Below, piece by piece: positions 1 through 23,031 of a stretch of DNA of 23,114 nucleotides; position 1 is the stretch's first letter, and each line of letters starts with the position of its first letter. This stretch comes from Deinococcus radiodurans R1 = ATCC 13939 = DSM 20539. Lineage in GTDB: Bacteria > Deinococcota > Deinococci > Deinococcales > Deinococcaceae. Under the pieces are notes generated by a model. It was given only the letters and a program-made list of their open reading frames with translations. It had not been told where the DNA came from and made no database searches. The translations under genes and the position numbers were made by a program. Location: NCBI RefSeq assembly GCF_000008565.1, contig NC_001263.1, positions 974,445-997,558 of the forward strand, in the 5' to 3' direction.

Positions 1-653
1 TGACGCGGCAGCCCCAGCCGGGCGGTCAGTTCGGGGGTCTGGCCCTGCTCCATGAAGTCCAGAAAGACCTGCGGGTCGCGCCCGTAAATCTTGTCGCCGA
101 CCATCGGCAGCCCGAGATGCGCGAGGTGGGCCCGAATCTGGTGCAGCCGCCCCGAGCGCGGGTAACACTCGATGAGCGCGTGCCCGGCGCGGCGGCCCAC
201 CACCCGGAAATCGGTGACGGCGGGCTTACCGTCCGGCACGACGGCCTGCCGAATCTGGATTTTGTTGGCCCCGCCGAGGCCGAGGTCGCCGAGCGGCGCG
301 TCGAGCGTCCGGCGGTCCCACTCCGGCTCGCCGTGCACGATGGCGAGGTAGGTTTTGCCAACGAGATGCGTCTTGAACAGGGTGAAAAAGGTGCGGGCGG
401 CGTCGCTGTCGCGCGTGAGCAGTTGCGCCCCGCTCGTTTCGCGGTCGAGGCGGTGCGGCGGCGCAAGGTCCGTTTCGCCCGTTTCCGCCTGCATGAAGGT
501 CAGCAGGTCCGGCACGTCCACCCGCGCCCGCACCGGGTGGGTCAGCCACAGCGCGGGCTTGTGGACCACGTAGAAATCGGGGTGCTCCACGATGATGCGC
601 GGCTTCTCGGTGGGCGGCAGCAGGGGCGCGCGGGTGGTCACAGCTCCCATCAT
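1..653 (-). CDS. RluA-family pseudouridine synthase; the 3' end runs off the left edge of the window
   Basis: Absent from the ORF track because this frame has no stop inside the window. My minus-strand translation gives [33 protein letters not shown]...[15 protein letters not shown]...[10 protein letters not shown]...[24 protein letters not shown]. This contains the HRLDxxTSG catalytic-Asp motif and the HQIR motif of RluA/RluD enzymes. The ATG at 653 (or 650) overlaps the stop of the upstream gene. Confidence 0.85.
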
Positions 654-1246
654 CACAGCTCCCACACGCTCCGGTAGTCACGGCCCTTGAGTCGCCCGGC
701 GAGGTCCACGCCGCGCTCCACCGTGCGTGTCAGCCGCTCCCGCAGCCACTCGCCCGGCACTTCCGGCGCGTCCCAGTGGGCCGAGGTCGCGTAGACGAAA
801 TGCGGGTTCACCACGCACTTGAAATCCACCATCAGCCCAAAGGCGAGCGCTCCGTGGCTGAGGTAGCCCTCCGGCAGTCCGCCCGAAATCAAGAAGGTCA
901 CCGGCTGGTCGAACCACGCACCGTACAGCCCGCGCTCGGCGTCGGAACTGCCCGTGAGTTCAATCAGCGCCTTCGTGCCCGACCCCAGCCCCCAGTTGTA
1001 GACCGGCGCCGCCAGAAAAATGCCGTCGGCCCCAGCAATCGCGTCGTAGTACGTCCCCGCGTTGGGGTGCTCGTAGCAGCCGCCCGGCCCCTGCACGTTG
1101 TCGAACGGCCCCAGCGGCGTCTCCCGCAGGTCGAGGTGCGTCACGCGGTGCCCGGCCTCCCGCAACTGCCGCGCGGTCAGCGCTGCCAGCCACGCCGAGC
1201 GACTCTCCGGGTCGAGGCTGGTCGAAAGAACGGTGAGCGAAAGCAT
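653..1246 (-). CDS. NADPH-dependent FMN reductase-like (flavodoxin-fold) oxidoreductase
   Basis: Track ORF 653..1363. The first 39 codons are low-complexity (PPPPPS) and overlap an intergenic repeat, so I start at the internal Met ([17 protein letters not shown]...). The [21 protein letters not shown] segment resembles the FMN reductase family motif. The exact start is uncertain. Confidence 0.7.
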
Positions 1247-1289
1247 GAGGGGGAGTGTAGAGGGTGGGGGAGGAGGTGCGGTTGAAAGC

Positions 1290-1366
1290 GACCCCTCACC
1301 CCTTGCCTGCGGCAAGGCCCTCTGCTTCGCAGCTCTTCGAGTCTCCTCTTGGTAGAGGGTCAAAAG
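1290..1366. repeat. Palindromic small intergenic repeat, copy A (Deinococcus SNR/SRE-like)
   Basis: CCCCTCACCCCTTGCCTGCGGCAAGGCCCTCT ... GGTAGAGGGTCAAAA. Both modules recur at 11764..11817. It contains the internal hairpin CCTTGCC/GGCAAGG and inverted CCCTCT/AGAGGG arms. Confidence 0.5.
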
Positions 1367-1415
1367 ATGCTTTGGCTATGGCTCTTACTTACGTTGCCTA
1401 CCCGAAAAATCGTGA

Positions 1416-2747
<1,332 letters not shown>

Positions 2748-2813
2748 GCGGGCGCCACTCGCTAAGCCAGGTGGCGTACTCCGCCCGGCGGGCACACGCC
2801 CTATCGTGAAGGG

Positions 2814-4343
2814 GTGAGCGACAATTCAGAGCCGCCCCGTGTGGACGCCCAGGTGGACGTTCAGGTTCCTTTTCCGCGTGACCCGCAGCCCGGCGACGAC
2901 CGCAAGCCGCGTGACCGGGTGACCGTGACCCGCCACGCGGTGAGGGTGGGCGGTCAGGAACTGCGCTACACCGTCACGGCGGGCACGCTGGTGCTCGGCG
3001 AGGAATCGCTGGACAAGGACGGCAAGTCCGAGGGTTGTAAGCCCCGCGCCGAGATGTTTTTCACTGCCTACGCGCTCGACGGGGCAGAGGGGGAGCCGCG
3101 TGACCCCCGGCAGCGCCCGCTGACCTTCAGTTTCAACGGGGGGCCGGGCAGTTCCTCGGTGTGGCTGCACCTCGGGCTGCTCGGGCCGCGCCGGGTGGTG
3201 ATGGGTGACGCCGGGGCACTGACCGGGCCGCCCTACGCCCTCACCGACAACGAGTACACGCTGCTCACCCACAGCGACCTCGTGTTCATTGACCCCGTAA
3301 CCACCGGCTATTCCCGCGCCGCCGAGGGCGAAAAGCCCGGCGACTTTCACGGCTTTCAGGCCGACGTGGAATCGGTGGGCGATTTCATTCGCCTGTGGAC
3401 CAGCCGGGCCGGGCGCTGGCTGAGTCCTAAGTTCCTGATAGGCGAAAGCTACGGCACGCTGCGGGCGGCGGCGCTGAGCGGGTATTTGCAGGAGCGGCAC
3501 GGCCTGTTTCTGAACGGCGTGATGCTGGTGAGCAGTATTCTGGACTACGCGACGGTGGACACCTCGCCGGGGCACGACCTCGCCTACGTGCTGCACCTGC
3601 CCACCTACGCGGCGACGGCCTGGTATCACGGCCTGCTCGGAGAGCGCCCGCTGGCCGACGTGCTGCGCCAGGCCGAGGCCTTTGCCGACGGGGACTATGC
3701 TCTGGCCCTGCACCGGGGCCGTCGCCTGAGTGACGAGGAGCGCCAGAGTGTCGCCACTCGCTACGCCGCGCTGACCGGCCTGAGCGCCGACTACGTGCTG
3801 CGCTGCGACCTGCGCGTGCCGCTTCACCGCTTCCGCAAGGAACTGCTGCGTGGCCAGGGCCTGACGGTGGGCCGCCTCGACACCCGGTTCATCGGCCTGG
3901 ACCGCGACCACGCCGGCGAGGACACCGAGTACGACCCCAGCATGAGCGCCATCATGGGGCCGTACACCGCCGCCATGAACCACTATGTCCGCGCCGAGCT
4001 GGGCTACGCCAGTGACCTGCCCTACGAGGTGCTGACGGGCCGGGTACGCCCCTGGAGCTTCCGCGAGTTCGAGAACCAGCACGTCCGGGTGTCCGACACG
4101 CTGCGCGAAGCCATGCACCAGAACCCGCACCTCAAGGTCTATGTCGGCTCGGGCTACTTCGACGCCGCCACGCCGTATCACGCGACCCGCCACACCTTCG
4201 ACCACCTGCAACTCGCCCCCAGCCTGCGCGGCAATATCCGCGAAATGTTCTATGAGTCGGGGCACATGATGTACGTGCACCTGCCGAGCCTCGCGCTGCA
4301 AAAACAGCATCTGGCCGAGTTTATCGAGTGGGCGAAGGGATAA
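2814..4343 (+). CDS. Peptidase S10 family serine carboxypeptidase
   Basis: 509-aa ORF with a GTG start preceded by GAAGGGG. It carries the S10 signatures FNGGPGSSSVW and the nucleophile motif GESYG. Confidence 0.85.
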   Translation: MSDNSEPPRVDAQVDVQVPFPRDPQPGDDRKPRDRVTVTRHAVRVGGQELRYTVTAGTLVLGEESLDKDGKSEGCKPRAEMFFTAYALDGAEGEPRDPRQRPLTFSFNGGPGSSSVWLHLGLLGPRRVVMGDAGALTGPPYALTDNEYTLLTHSDLVFIDPVTTGYSRAAEGEKPGDFHGFQADVESVGDFIRLWTSRAGRWLSPKFLIGESYGTLRAAALSGYLQERHGLFLNGVMLVSSILDYATVDTSPGHDLAYVLHLPTYAATAWYHGLLGERPLADVLRQAEAFADGDYALALHRGRRLSDEERQSVATRYAALTGLSADYVLRCDLRVPLHRFRKELLRGQGLTVGRLDTRFIGLDRDHAGEDTEYDPSMSAIMGPYTAAMNHYVRAELGYASDLPYEVLTGRVRPWSFREFENQHVRVSDTLREAMHQNPHLKVYVGSGYFDAATPYHATRHTFDHLQLAPSLRGNIREMFYESGHMMYVHLPSLALQKQHLAEFIEWAKG

Positions 4344-4481
4344 GACCGTCTGCGATGGAATCCCCCTGGGCTTGGGGGTTCCATCCAAACGGAGTGAGCA
4401 GCAGTCCCTACGGGTTTCGGAAAATGGACCCGCAGCCGGTGCCGTCCCGGCTGTGGGGGAAGGGGACGAAAGCCGTAGAAG

Positions 4482-6071
4482 TCAGACCGGCGCCGCCCGC
4501 CCCAGAATCAGGTCGGCGGCCTTTTCCGCCACCATGATGGTCGGGGCGTTCGTGTTGCCGCGCGGAACGGTGGGCATTACGCTCGCGTCGGCAATCCACA
4601 GGCCGTCCACGCCGCGCACCCGCAGGTCGTCGCCCACCACCGCGAAGTCGTCGTGGCCCATGCGGCAGGTGCCGACCGGGTGGTAGATGGTCATGGCGTG
4701 CTCGCGCACATGCTCGGTCAGGGCGGCGCGGTCTGTGGCCCCCGCGCCCGGCAGGAACTCGGCCCGGCGGTAAGAGGTGAGCGCCGCCGTATCCGCCACT
4801 TCCCGCGCCAGTTCGATGCCGCGCAGCAGCACGTCGAGGTCACGCGAGTCCGAAAGGTAATTCGGCTCGATGAGAGGCCGCGCCAGCGGGTCGGCGCTCG
4901 CCAGCCGAATCTGGCCCCGGCTGTGCGGTTGCAGCAGCGTGGGCAGCAGCGTGAAGTGGTGCCCACGCGCCAGCGGCTTGCCAAATTCCAGGAAGAGCGC
5001 TGCGCCGTGGTGAAATTGCAGGTCCGGGGCGGCGAGGTCCGGCGAGGTCCGCAGGAAGCCGCCCGTCTCGGCCACGTTGCTCACCAGCAGGCCGCGCCGT
5101 TCCTGCTCGTACTCGCTGAGGTGCGGTTCGCGCAGGGGGCTGCGCAGGCCCGGCGTGTCGGTTTCGAACACCACCGGGACAATCAGATGGTCTTGCAGGT
5201 TCTGCCCCACACCCGGTAGGTCGCACTGCACCTCCACGCCCGCTGCTCGCAGTTCGTCCGCCGGGCCGATGCCCGAGAGCAGCAGCAGGTGCGGACTCGT
5301 CACGGCGCCCGCCGTCAGGATGACGCCGCCTTCCGCGTGCAGTTCGTGTTCCGCGCCCGCTTCGTCGCGGTAGGCGACCCCCACCGCCCGGCCCCCGCGC
5401 AGCAGCAGGCGGGTGACGTGGGCGCCGGTCGTGACCTGCAACTCGCCCGGCCCCTCCAGCGCCAGCGCAGGCCGCAGGTAGGCCGCTGCCGTGGAATGGC
5501 GCTCGCCGCCCTTCATGGTGACCTGATAGCGCCCGAAGCCTTCTTGCTGCGCCGCGTTGAAGTCGTCGTTGCGTGGATAACCGAGTTCGGCAAAGCCGTC
5601 GGTCAGCGCGTCGCAGATGGGGTGGGTGTAGCGGCGATGCTCCACATGCAGCGGGCCGCCCGCGCCGTGAAAGGCGTCGGGGCCGTCCTCGAAGTCCTCG
5701 CTGCGTTTGAAGTACGGCAGCACCTCGTCGTAGCTCCAGCCCCGGTTGCCCGCCGCTGCCCAGCCGTCGTAGTCGGCGCGGTGCCCGCGAATGTAGATCA
5801 TGGCGTTGATGGAGCTGCTGCCGCCCAGCACCTTGCCGCGCGGCCAGAACAGCCGCCGCCCGTTCAGTTCCGCTTGCGGCTCGGTCTGGTACGCCCAGTC
5901 CACCTCGCTGCCGAACAGCCGCCCGAACGCCACCGGAATCTGGATGTGGGGGTGGGTGTCGGGGCCGCCCGCTTCGAGCAGGTGCACCCGCCGCCCGGCC
6001 TCCCGCAGCCGCGCCGCCGCCGCGCAGCCGCCCGACCCGGCGCCGACGACAATGAATTCTGTGCCGCTCAT
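4482..6071 (-). CDS. GMC family FAD oxidoreductase (choline dehydrogenase-like)
   Basis: Track ORF 4482..6170, with the start placed at the internal ATG at 6071 (MSGTEFIVVGAGSGGCAAAARL, an FAD GxGxxG motif). GMC signatures are GGSSSINAMIY, YHPVGTCRMG and ADASVMP. Confidence 0.9.
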   Translation of the reverse strand: MSGTEFIVVGAGSGGCAAAARLREAGRRVHLLEAGGPDTHPHIQIPVAFGRLFGSEVDWAYQTEPQAELNGRRLFWPRGKVLGGSSSINAMIYIRGHRADYDGWAAAGNRGWSYDEVLPYFKRSEDFEDGPDAFHGAGGPLHVEHRRYTHPICDALTDGFAELGYPRNDDFNAAQQEGFGRYQVTMKGGERHSTAAAYLRPALALEGPGELQVTTGAHVTRLLLRGGRAVGVAYRDEAGAEHELHAEGGVILTAGAVTSPHLLLLSGIGPADELRAAGVEVQCDLPGVGQNLQDHLIVPVVFETDTPGLRSPLREPHLSEYEQERRGLLVSNVAETGGFLRTSPDLAAPDLQFHHGAALFLEFGKPLARGHHFTLLPTLLQPHSRGQIRLASADPLARPLIEPNYLSDSRDLDVLLRGIELAREVADTAALTSYRRAEFLPGAGATDRAALTEHVREHAMTIYHPVGTCRMGHDDFAVVGDDLRVRGVDGLWIADASVMPTVPRGNTNAPTIMVAEKAADLILGRAAPV

Positions 6072-6253
6072 GCGGCCCGCCCATGCAGATGAAGTTTCAA
6101 GGTGCGTCCAGCATAGGTGAGGTGGGGGAGAGGGGAGTGGCGTTTGTTGGACAGGCGGGAGGAGGAGCACTGGGAAAGGCCCGCGAACGCCTAGCCCGCT
6201 TGCATTTGCCCCGGTCCCGGCGCGTTATTCTGCCCTCTGTCGCGCCCCCCCGT

Positions 6254-6373
6254 GCGCGGTCATCCAGAGTCGCCCCAGGGTGTTTCCTGCCCGCCTACGG
6301 CGCAGCAACCGGCCTTCATCACGGTCACGGTGCTTTCAGGAAAGGGCCGTTTAGGTGCGCCGACGATGGCGCG
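6254..6373 (+). promoter_or_regulatory. Candidate SAM-I/IV-like (S-box) riboswitch aptamer in the metH leader
   Basis: 5' GCGCGGUCAUC (6254-6264) can pair with GAUGGCGCG (6365-6373) as P1. Next come the conserved-looking AGAG (6266-6269), a CGCC/GGCG helix (6271-6274 with 6299-6302) enclosing CAGG..CCUG, GCAACC (6305-6310), an ACCG/CGGU helix (6308-6311 with 6328-6331), and GGUGC (6329-6333). The K-turn and P4 are poor matches. This is eyeball only, with no covariance model run. Confidence 0.35.
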
Positions 6374-11763: not shown

Positions 11764-11817
11764 CCCCCTCACCCCTTGCTGCGCAAGGCCCTCTCCCACA
11801 AGGGTAGAGGGTCAAAA
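11764..11817. repeat. Palindromic small intergenic repeat, copy B
   Basis: CCCCCTCACCCCTTGCTGCGCAAGGCCCTCTCCCACAAGGGTAGAGGGTCAAAAA. It shares the roughly 33-bp 5' module and roughly 15-bp 3' module with 1290..1366 but lacks about 20 bp of the internal segment. Confidence 0.5.
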
Positions 11818-11828
11818 ACAGATAAGGA

Positions 11829-18655: not shown

Positions 18656-18976
18656 TGGGTCAGCCGTAGGGTCGGCCCCTGACGGCTTTTTTGCATGGGG
18701 GTGGTCACAGGAAACATGCCGGGTAGTCTAGCGCCCCGGTTCCACCCTTCTCGGGCATGGCAAACGAAAGGTCAGCAGGCCGCTTATCCCGCGCCCCCCA
18801 CAAGCCGCGCCGGGAATTTGTGTCATCTGCGCGGCGATACGACCCGCGCTGGGAGGCCACTGCCCGCATGTTTGGTGTTTCTGGACGGGTAACGAGCGGC
18901 CCTTGTGTTGGAAGCGGTTCCTGCGGCACTATCTCGGAGTCTAACCACAGCCGTGACTTCTCTTTTCGGAGGCCTT

Positions 18977-20292
<1,316 letters not shown>

Positions 20293-20308
<16 letters not shown>

Positions 20309-20458
20309 TTGAACCTCACACGACTAAAGTCGCGTGATTCTCACTTCGCAGACCATTGCCCGCCGAAGCAGGTCTGACATAGCCTCCATGAGCGTTTAAG
20401 GTGTCTGAGATTCCCGCAGCCACCAACGCTTCACGCCGAATGTTCAGCGCAGCGTTCT
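20293..20458 (-). ncRNA. TnpB-associated omega RNA / reRNA: roughly 150-nt scaffold overlapping the tnpB 3' end and right end, plus a 16-nt guide from flanking DNA
   Basis: The minus strand reads ...GAATCTCAGACACCTTAAACGCTCATGGAGGCTATGTCAGACCTGCTTCGGCGGGCAATGGTCTGCGAAGTGAGAATCACGCGACTTTAGTCGTGTGAGGTTCAA|GCTCATGCGGTGGCCT. Visible helices are CAGACC/GGTCTG enclosing CCTGC-TTCG-GCGGG, and CACGCGAC-TTTA-GTCGTGTG. This matches my recollection of the ISDra2 scaffold. The 5' end is uncertain and could extend to about 20540. Confidence 0.8.
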
Positions 20459-21542
20459 CGTCTCGGTCATGGGTTTCCCCACAGTTCGGGCAAGTCCATG
20501 TACGGACGGCAAGATTCTTCACTTCGGGATTCTTGAATCCGCAGTCATGACACAACTGGCTAGATGGAAAGTAGGGGCTGACTTTAGATACCAGTCGCCC
20601 GTACCACGCTGCCTTGTATTCCAACTGCCGGATGAACTCACCCCAGCCCGCATCACTGATGCTCAGTGCAAGGCGGCGATTTTTCCGCATGTTGTCGGGT
20701 TTAAGGTGTTCGGTTCCGATGATTTCGTACTCACGCACCAGGGAGGTGGTGAGCTTGTGAAGGAAATCCTGACGCTTATTGACAATGCGCTTGTGAATCC
20801 GAGCCAGCTTGGTTTTCGCTTTCCCGTAACGTGCGCTGCCCTTCTTCCGTCTGGACAGGGTTTGCTGAGCTTTACGAAGTCTTTTCAGGGTGGAGCGGTA
20901 ATATTTCGGATTCTGTTCATGCTTAAACCTCACGCCATCGGTCACGATGGCAAAATCCTTGATGCCGACATCCACACCCGCTGCAAACTTGGGAGCCGCA
21001 GGCAGGTAGGGAATCTCGACTTCACAGAGAACGGACGCTTCGTAATGGCCTTCGTGAATACGGCGCACAGTGACATTCAGAATCTTCCCTTGAATATCCT
21101 GCTGGCCCTTGGTTTTCACCCATCCCAGCTTAGGAAGTTTGAGCCTACCTTCCCCAATTTGGATGTTGTTGTTGGTGAATTGAGTCCGGTAGGACTCTCC
21201 CGTGCGCTTCTTTCTGAAACGTGGGAATCCTACCTTTTTACCGGACTGCTTCACAGTCCGAAAGAAGTTCTTGTACGCGGTCTCAAGGTTTTTCAGCGAG
21301 TTCTGCAAAGCAAACTTATCTACTTCCGAGAGCCAGGAGGTTTCTTCAGCCTGCTTCAGAAGGGTCAGTTCGCTACTCGTTTGCCCGTAGGTCAGTCCCT
21401 TCCCGCTTTCCTTGTAGGCCGCAATGCGACGGGCAAGGAAGTGGTTGTAGACGAACCTTGCGCTACCCAGCGTGCGGTTAATCAGTTCAGTCTGAGCCGC
21501 ATTTGGGTACAGCCTGACCACGAAAGCCTTATTCCTTATCAT
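20316..21542 (-). CDS. tnpB: TnpB, RuvC-like RNA-guided DNA endonuclease (OMEGA / Cas12 ancestor)
   Basis: 408 aa. The RuvC triad is D191 ([11 protein letters not shown]), E278 (IIGTEHLK) and D361 ([12 protein letters not shown]). A zinc finger is formed by CHDC(331-334)...CPNC(351-354). The sequence matches ISDra2 TnpB as I remember it. Confidence 0.98.
20317..20336 (-). repeat. Right-end subterminal hairpin (TnpA recognition element as DNA; 3' stem of the omega RNA)
   Basis: Minus-strand CACGCGAC-TTTA-GTCGTGTG forms 8 bp with one G-T pair. It lies 7 nt from the element end (GGTTCAA). Confidence 0.75.
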
Positions 21543-21951
21543 GCTGGCTCTCTATGTATTTCTGAATCTGAGCGCGGGTGTTTTCAGAAACAGTCAGGAT
21601 GCAATACGACGGGTTCCAGAGATTGCCGCCCCACAGCTTTTCTTTCAACTGCGGGTAGGCCACGAACATCCGACGTGCGGAAGCGCCTTTCAGCGCCTTC
21701 ACGAAGTCGGGGATGGCTTGCTGTGGGGTTGCGCTTAGCAGGAGGTGAACGTGGTCAGGCATGACTTCCATCGTGATGACTTCCAGCCCGTTCTGAGCGG
21801 CAATGTCACGCAGGATGTCTTTCAGTCCATCAGCAACCTCACCCACCAACACCTGATGACGGTATTTCACGCACCAGATGAGGTGGTATTCAAGCTGATA
21901 GACGTAACCCCGGCCTTTCTTCATCTCAAGGGGAAGAATAACATATGTCAT
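21529..21951 (-). CDS. tnpA: IS200/IS605 HUH single-strand DNA transposase (Y1)
   Basis: 140 aa with the HUH motif H67-V-H69 (MPDHVHLLL) and the catalytic Tyr in the C-terminal helix (QKYIESQ, Y132). Confidence 0.97.
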
Positions 21952-21980
21952 CTGGAAAAGCTAGAGGCTTCCGCTTTTCA

Positions 21981-21998
21981 TCGCCCTTTTCAGGGCGA
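21981..21998 (-). repeat. Left-end subterminal hairpin
   Basis: Minus-strand TCGCCC-TGAAAA-GGGCGA forms a 6-bp perfect stem. It sits between the element tip (22044) and the tnpA start (21951). Confidence 0.7.
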
Positions 21999-22044
21999 GA
22001 GGGGCTAACTCATGACTGAAGTCACGAGTGTGCGCCCCTCAAGC

Positions 22045-23018
<974 letters not shown>

Positions 23019-23031
23019 ATCCACACGCGAA

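Follow-up and report, generated by a model that had tools for sequence, protein, structure and literature searches.

The stretch of Deinococcus radiodurans R1 chromosome I analyzed here (NC_001263.1, positions 974,445 to 997,558; 23,114 nucleotides, referred to below as the window) contains, at 20309-22044 on the minus strand, a complete and sequence-intact 1736-bp copy of ISDra2, an insertion sequence (IS) of the IS200/IS605 family. Our joint reading, which we hold at a probability of about 0.95, is that this ISDra2 copy would move by peel-and-paste transposition, that its TnpB nuclease would act with a guide RNA to retain it, and that its present flanks most likely arose by two insertions followed by recombination between the copies. 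The element, the TnpB system and the 6-kb deletion have all been published, the observation is real and its interpretation right, and the presence of ISDra2 in the window adds no new biology. What is new here consists of small additions, namely a second TTGAT motif at the deletion and a covariation between the target motif, TnpB residue S56 and the left end of the element. ISDra2 TnpB is the founding transposon-encoded RNA-guided nuclease, bears on the ancestry of Cas12 proteins and is now a compact genome-editing tool.

The element, its proteins and its guide RNA

An exact-protein look-up of TnpB listed six places in other D. radiodurans genomes, and the six ISDra2 copies found there are 100% identical to the window over 20309..22044 (element positions 1-1736) and diverge directly outside. 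Because identity to copies with unrelated flanks stops at these positions, the boundaries are empirical rather than judged by eye. The window element is the same element as ISDra2 (IS8301) of D. radiodurans, not merely one like it, and differs from ISDra2 elsewhere only in genomic position and in its guide, GCTCATGCGGTGGCCT; nothing was found that contradicts this identification. On the 1999 BAA-816 chromosome I, according to two comparative-genomics papers, this copy is DR_0978/DR_0979 and lies between DR_0977 (pckA) and DR_0980 (gdh), and a comparative-genomics paper reports that ATCC 13939 strains have a single ISDra2 copy, a clean insertion at DR_1651/1652. A scan of a genome collection with TnpB returned relatives of at most 85% identity and did not return D. 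radiodurans itself. The G+C fraction is 0.48-0.55 within the element and 0.62-0.72 in the flanks. The original prediction, made by a model that read the raw sequence, had recognized the system, its exact boundaries, its motif and its guide, and the interval it gave for an ISDra2-like element, 20293-22049, has as its limits precisely the guide's end and the motif's start. The parts of the element are as follows; TAM denotes the transposon-associated motif and omegaRNA (also reRNA, right-end element RNA) the guide RNA.

22049..22045, minus strand: TTGAT, the TnpA target and left cleavage motif and the TnpB TAM, read from the sequence and supplied by gdh coding DNA
21952..22044, minus strand: left end, whose subterminal hairpin is imperfect (inner stem-loop 22029..22008, carrying a G-T mismatch) and is the site bound by TnpA on the top strand
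21951..21529, minus strand: tnpA, a 140-residue Y1/HUH single-strand DNA transposase (HVH at 67-69, Y132)
21542..20316, minus strand: tnpB, a 408-residue RNA-guided RuvC nuclease (D191/E278/D361; zinc finger C331/C334/C351/C354)
20309..20424, minus strand: omegaRNA/reRNA scaffold, -116 to -1, with stems 1-4 and a pseudoknot, numbering mapped from the published papers
20316..20337, minus strand: right-end subterminal hairpin, as DNA a TnpA binding site and as RNA stem 4 of the omegaRNA, with a UUUA loop
20308..20293, minus strand: 16-nt guide segment GCTCATGCGGTGGCCT from flanking pckA antisense DNA (as RNA, GCUCAUGCGGUGGCCU)

The two genes, which overlap by 14 nt, encode proteins of known structure. 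TnpA is identical to PDB 2XM3/2XQC over all 140 residues and matches Pfam Y1_Tnp (2.3e-43) and, above its cut-off, NCBIfam transpos_IS200; together with the HVH motif and Y132, this bears out the Y1/HUH transposition role that had been assigned to it. TnpB is identical over all 408 residues to PDB 8BF8/8EX9/8EXA/8H1J, entitled 'RNA-guided DNA endonuclease TnpB', and the Cas12-like fold proposed for it agrees with its matches to HTH_OrfB_IS605, OrfB_IS605 and Cas12f1-like_TNB in Pfam and, above the cut-off, to IS200_TnpB in NCBIfam. [quoted passage not shown] Triad and cysteines are invariant in six full-length related proteins, and D191 is also present in the related locus L008.

The ends of the element have the properties of IS200/IS605 family termini. 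Insertion is directly 3' of TTGAT, and the empty sites in the IS-free strain CP031500 (L025) read TTGAT followed by G. The claim that TTGAT is fixed at the left junction holds beyond the window, as in L019 and L020, which are independent copies, and in the related element L001 the motif likewise adjoins the left end; a further copy, L022, has the same left flank as L019, so that two other distinct D. radiodurans left flanks were recovered. No terminal inverted repeat was found at the element ends, and no target-site duplication at the right end, in which the other ISDra2 copies are alike. The left-end hairpin folds as DNA at -14.2 kcal/mol (z = -3.6; 0/200 shuffles equal) and shows compensatory changes among related elements; the top-strand DNA fold of the right-end hairpin has z = -2.0. 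The right end finishes with GAGGTTCAA (ending GGTTCAA) at 20309. The arrangement of these parts is not a chance pattern.

The scaffold can be positioned from published work on the ISDra2 TnpB and its guide RNA (Karvelis et al., 2021; Nakagawa et al., 2023; Sasnauskas et al., 2023). In the cryo-EM numbering, the tnpB stop codon begins with -10U, -6G..-1A read GUUCAA, -116..-1 form the scaffold and +1..+16 the guide; mapped on the window, -1 falls at 20309 and -116 at 20424, with the pseudoknot strands at 20413..20411 and 20313..20311. The tnpB stop and the 35 sense codons before it lie within the scaffold, and longer precursors begin further upstream (-231 = 20539). Sequence conservation stops sharply at -1, and in the 16 nt that follow, copies and relatives show no relationship to one another, so the earlier statement that the scaffold ends at the element boundary and takes its guide from the flank is accurate to the base, including the 16-nt guide.

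Support for the published scaffold structure comes only from comparison. The published pairs (stem 1, stem 2, stems 3a/3b, stem 4 and the pseudoknot of -105..-103 with -5..-3) were placed on alignments, and in an independent MAFFT alignment of 8 Deinococcus elements 97.5% of cells are paired, with 10 compensatory pairs, a number that falls to 0-1 if the partner is slid. From the Deinococcus elements a covariance model was derived, without the pseudoknot, and it gave 40 matches, of which 31 are distinct, at related loci in genomes and metagenomes. Across the 31 distinct sequences 95.2% of cells are paired and 29/35 pairs are compensatory, compared with 35-39% paired in slid controls, in an alignment that was fitted to the covariance model and hence leans towards the nested stems; the pseudoknot, left out of that model, still pairs in 94.8% of cells. 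This supports the conserved structured non-coding region that had been proposed at the tnpB 3' end and right end. In L002, L003 and L007 the TnpB open reading frame (ORF) ends about 9 codons earlier and nucleotide conservation runs on, and L006 is without stem 3b, which published omegaRNA work reports as dispensable. The early stops and the loss of stem 3b fit conservation of the tnpB tail for its roles as RNA and TnpA site rather than for the protein it encodes.

The 6,066-bp deletion at the insertion site

The two genes that flank the element are both incomplete:

18905..20308, plus strand: pckA (phosphoenolpyruvate carboxykinase, ATP), its 3' end cut off by the element; inside the IS the ORF continues as far as 20377
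22045..23018, plus strand: gdh (Glu/Leu/Phe/Val dehydrogenase), truncated at its 5' end by the element; Pfam ELFV_dehydrog_N

The IS-free strain CP031500 served as the reference for the unoccupied locus, where a prfA neighbour is followed, in this order, by the whole of pckA, one hypothetical gene, an ORF of 44 aa, the genes for E1-alpha and E1-beta dehydrogenase and gdh twice in tandem. The window matches this sequence at 100% from 6348 onwards on the pckA side and at 1-282 on the gdh side, and is without 282-6347, or 6,066 bp, a segment that in CP031500 contains four complete genes plus the remaining parts of pckA and gdh. Comparison with the IS-free strain thus places the window copy where 6,066 bp have been deleted, a deletion by which both pckA and gdh (DR_0977/DR_0980) are cut short. 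In the literature the event appears as a 'special case' of 6,065 bp, with ISDra2 in place of about 6 kb, and a second paper describes five ORFs replaced by DR_0979-DR_0978.

These data refute a simple clean insertion into one gene, whose precise excision would restore the host gene, as the original prediction had implied without noticing the deletion joint. The TTGAT at the left junction and the absent target duplication do resemble a standard IS200/IS605 insertion. However, the Pfam match of gdh begins only at profile position 58/129 of ELFV_dehydrog_N, that of pckA covers 2-429 of the 465 positions of PEPCK_ATP, the corresponding points lie 6,066 bp apart in CP031500 and the literature agrees, which leaves a clean insertion with practically no chance of being correct. 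Because the flanks derive from sites 6,066 bp apart, excision would give a gdh-pckA fusion joint, not a restored gene.

How the deletion arose is a separate question, on which the published account holds that attachment on the right side has no sequence requirement and favours an IS 'jumping over' folded single-stranded DNA. In the IS-free sequence, a TTGAT on the same strand stands directly before both breakpoints, at L025 277-281 in gdh (window 22044/22045; GTTCTTGAT before the breakpoint and GGTCATCC after it) and at 6343-6347 in pckA (window 20308/20309; GTGCTTGAT before and GCTCATGCGG after). Since TTGAT occurs on the relevant strand at a frequency of about 7.6e-4 per position, the second coincidence is unlikely by chance, and the motif at both breakpoints favours two insertions and recombination over a jump-over. 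The most likely origin of the joint is therefore that two ISDra2 copies inserted in the same orientation and that homologous recombination between them removed the intervening DNA; according to comparative-genomics papers, the BAA-816 lineage gained six extra ISDra2 copies. In this way, TTGAT at both deletion ends narrows the published explanations of the deletion.

A deletion made in one step by the transposition machinery, either by a TnpA strand exchange from the left-end TTGAT to a second TTGAT lying 6 kb off on one and the same single strand or by a jump-over during insertion, seems improbable. Each breakpoint lies at a cleavage site of TnpA type, both on one strand, as such an exchange requires, and the published discussion favours a transposition-linked deletion, but no such reaction of a Y1 transposase is documented in the papers examined. 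A jump-over predicts no sequence requirement at the right breakpoint, yet a TTGAT adjoins it (p about 8e-4), and two insertions with recombination give the same product by known reactions, in a lineage with six extra copies. There is likewise little reason to expect that the joint is a product of the element's own enzymes, through TnpA strand exchange or through TnpB cutting of an intact pckA allele; if the TnpB route were true, cutting at TTGAT+GCTCATGCGGTGGCCT in pckA would fix the allele carrying the IS plus the deletion across the polyploid genome copies. An origin of the deletion in off-target cutting by TnpB was rejected, as a hypothetical guide from the gdh site matches the pckA site at only 6/16 positions.

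It is also unlikely, if somewhat less so, that the deletion is an assembly artefact, in which two identical ISDra2 copies around a 6-kb segment were collapsed in the 1999 shotgun assembly. A pair of direct repeats, if collapsed, would leave exactly such breakpoints at two valid same-strand TTGAT sites, errors in the 1999 sequence are known, the comparison paper warns of misassembly at long repeats, and the window has an apparent frameshift at the gdh 3' end. Against this, the comparison paper does not put the 6-kb event among those flagged for caution, and a collapse would require that a finished genome discarded a 6-kb unique contig. No record of the chimeric PckA-IS ORF was found anywhere, nor any independent assembly of the junction.

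Other observations concern the same flanks and target sites. At about 22990-23020 on the plus strand the gdh frame has no stop, frame 0 being open to the window end and the +2 frame giving RGLYP and a stop; this has the look of a frameshift by one base in the 3' end of gdh, consistent with the sequence errors reported for DR_0980 in the 1999 genome. In another assembly (GCA_965136095.1), L022 is a second ISDra2 copy with non-matching flanks: it has the left flank of the resident copy, L019 (DctM side), in common and a different right flank from 5235, in an SNF2-family gene. In all five D. radiodurans ISDra2 target sites (the right flanks of the window, L019, L020 and L022, and L025 at 282), G is the next base after TTGAT; the first base of ISDra2 is also G, and the two deletion-end sites have CTTGATGnTCAT in common. 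In this small sample, these features hint at a target preference of ISDra2 beyond the pentanucleotide.

RNA-guided cutting and proposed retention

The mechanism proposed for this copy combines transposition by TnpA with cutting by TnpB. TnpA would bind the subterminal hairpins on one DNA strand and cleave the left end 3' of TTGAT and the right end 3' of TTCAA, after which the element would move as a single-stranded circle to a new TTGAT. A transcript over the tnpB 3' end and the right end would be trimmed to a scaffold of ~116 nt that continues 16 nt into the flank (GCUCAUGCGGUGGCCU), and the resulting TnpB-RNA complex would cut double-stranded DNA that carries TTGAT and a match to the guide, a sequence present only after element excision. 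The occupied site, which reads TTCAA and guide, would be spared, and repair of the break from a genome copy, sister or other, in which the element is still present would restore the element.

Parts of this scheme have been shown with an identical TnpB, and the original prediction was right in calling the activity already known. An RNA of ~150 nt from the right end co-purifies with this protein, its last ~16 nt being derived from the flank; TTGAT is needed 5' of the target; double-stranded DNA is cut in a staggered manner 15-21 bp from the TAM; and D191A and E278A each abolish TnpB activity (Karvelis et al., 2021). The same authors suggested that, once TnpA has excised the element, the remaining donor joint, flanked by TTGAT, is cut and a sister copy then serves for its repair (Karvelis et al., 2021). 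In E. coli, the ISDra2 protein (DraTnpB) interferes with plasmids bearing its native donor joint, and Geobacillus elements are retained in a manner that depends on TnpB, the guide and the RuvC site (Meers et al.). Homing or retention, as foreseen at the outset, therefore stands as donor-joint interference for DraTnpB and as retention for the Geobacillus relatives, both in E. coli, and retention of ISDra2 by recombination in D. radiodurans itself is what we infer from them.

The sequence around the window copy is consistent with this proposal. A search of the window for TAM and guide, allowing up to 3 mismatches, had as its sole match the occupied site, with TTCAA instead of TTGAT, which is the arrangement expected if the element is to spare itself. 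TTGAT and the 16-mer GCTCATGCGGTGGCCT are intact in the IS-free strain (L025 6343-6363), and the intact pckA of IS-free strains is a perfect TAM and 16-nt target for the guide of the window copy.

The IS605-family TnpB/IscB elements of Geobacillus stearothermophilus share with ISDra2 the excision by TnpA, a TAM common to both enzymes and guide-directed cutting of the donor joint; they differ in their TAM, TTTAT, and in that retention by recombination has been shown in E. coli, as against donor-joint interference only for ISDra2 (Meers et al.). Cas12f, Cas12m and C2c8 have in common with TnpB a RuvC fold into which a zinc-finger TNB domain is inserted, a guide scaffold with a pseudoknot and a 5' adjacent motif. 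This kinship is visible in matches of the window TnpB to Cas12f1-like_TNB (Pfam) and UnCas12m4a (PDB), and in an NCBIfam search the Cas12f2 and C2c8 models scored far below their curated cut-offs. No CRISPR repeat-spacer array or adaptation genes were found in the window and, in contrast to type V CRISPR systems, the guide of ISDra2 is fixed by the insertion site rather than acquired. In its action the element resembles a minimal Cas12, yet it does not belong to the CRISPR systems.

Several results weigh against the joint reading of ISDra2 as set out above. An Rfam scan of the whole window returned no family at gathering score, the scaffold included, and no CRISPR RNA family. The single-sequence RNA fold of -116..+16 lacks significance (z = -1.8) and departs from the published fold; in its minimum-energy form, the guide of the window copy pairs with the 5' end of the scaffold, a chance pairing. 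A scan for sigma-70-type promoters and for terminators gave nothing informative, with one weak match on the plus strand and none on the strand of the element. No two-insertion intermediate came to light among the six places listed for TnpB, none of which lies at pckA or gdh, in the records looked up for the chimeric PckA-IS ORF or among the contigs of the metagenome scan described below. Finally, TnpB is said, from earlier D. radiodurans genetics, to lower the apparent excision and insertion of ISDra2, a finding that can be reinterpreted as retention.

This last point, and a preprint remark that earlier indirect methods suggested suppression of transposition by TnpB, could be taken to mean that TnpB is mainly a regulator that damps TnpA transposition, not a nuclease for homing or retention. 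We regard this as very improbable, since the identical protein is a TAM- and guide-dependent nuclease of double-stranded DNA that targets native donor joints in E. coli, its relatives require an intact RuvC site and a targeting guide for retention, and retention itself predicts that fewer excision products would be detected.

Related elements and minor observations

Related Deinococcus elements differ in the TAM, which is TTGAT in the window, L001 and L007 and TTGAC in L002-L005, L008 and L017. The last base of the motif covaries with TnpB residue 56 (S vs D), and S56 contacts this base in the cryo-EM structure; it also covaries with one base 5' of the left-end hairpin (CACAC/CATAC vs CAAGC/CATGC). 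The pattern is suggestive only, and the changes in TAM, residue 56 and left end probably represent one evolutionary event. These elements nevertheless provide a small comparative data set in which the TAM, one TAM-contacting residue of TnpB and one left-end base change together.

In L003, L004, L005 and L008 (about 2813-3005), a left end of ~80 nt is fused directly to tnpB and tnpA is missing; these four are non-autonomous tnpB-only derivatives. L008 has an additional insertion of ~316 bp inside tnpB.

A metagenome scan with the terminal 28 nt of the right end (20309-20336), which comprise the right-end hairpin and GGTTCAA, found this sequence exactly kept in 22 contigs (L026-L047), none of them from D. 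radiodurans. Their flanks are mostly AT-rich and their scaffolds are otherwise very different and often shorter (75-91 nt); L026 contains three of the 28-nt termini within 5 kb. The right ends in L026-L047 may belong to miniature elements.

An ORF of 431 codons antisense to tnpB and tnpA (20469-21764, plus strand) was considered and rejected as a gene: it has no significant Pfam family and is broken in L004, L005 and L007, and it is open in L001-L003. An antisense frame as long arose in only 1/1000 synonymous shuffles of tnpB, which has only three TTA/CTA/TCA codons, all in its last 30 codons (the RNA-constrained tail). The frame is most likely a codon-usage by-product of the near absence of these codons.

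Away from the element, 56 bp of the window (11764-11819) are 100% identical to an unrelated D. radiodurans locus (L020, L023 1221-1276), and this stretch is possibly one of the small non-coding repeats described for the D. radiodurans genome.

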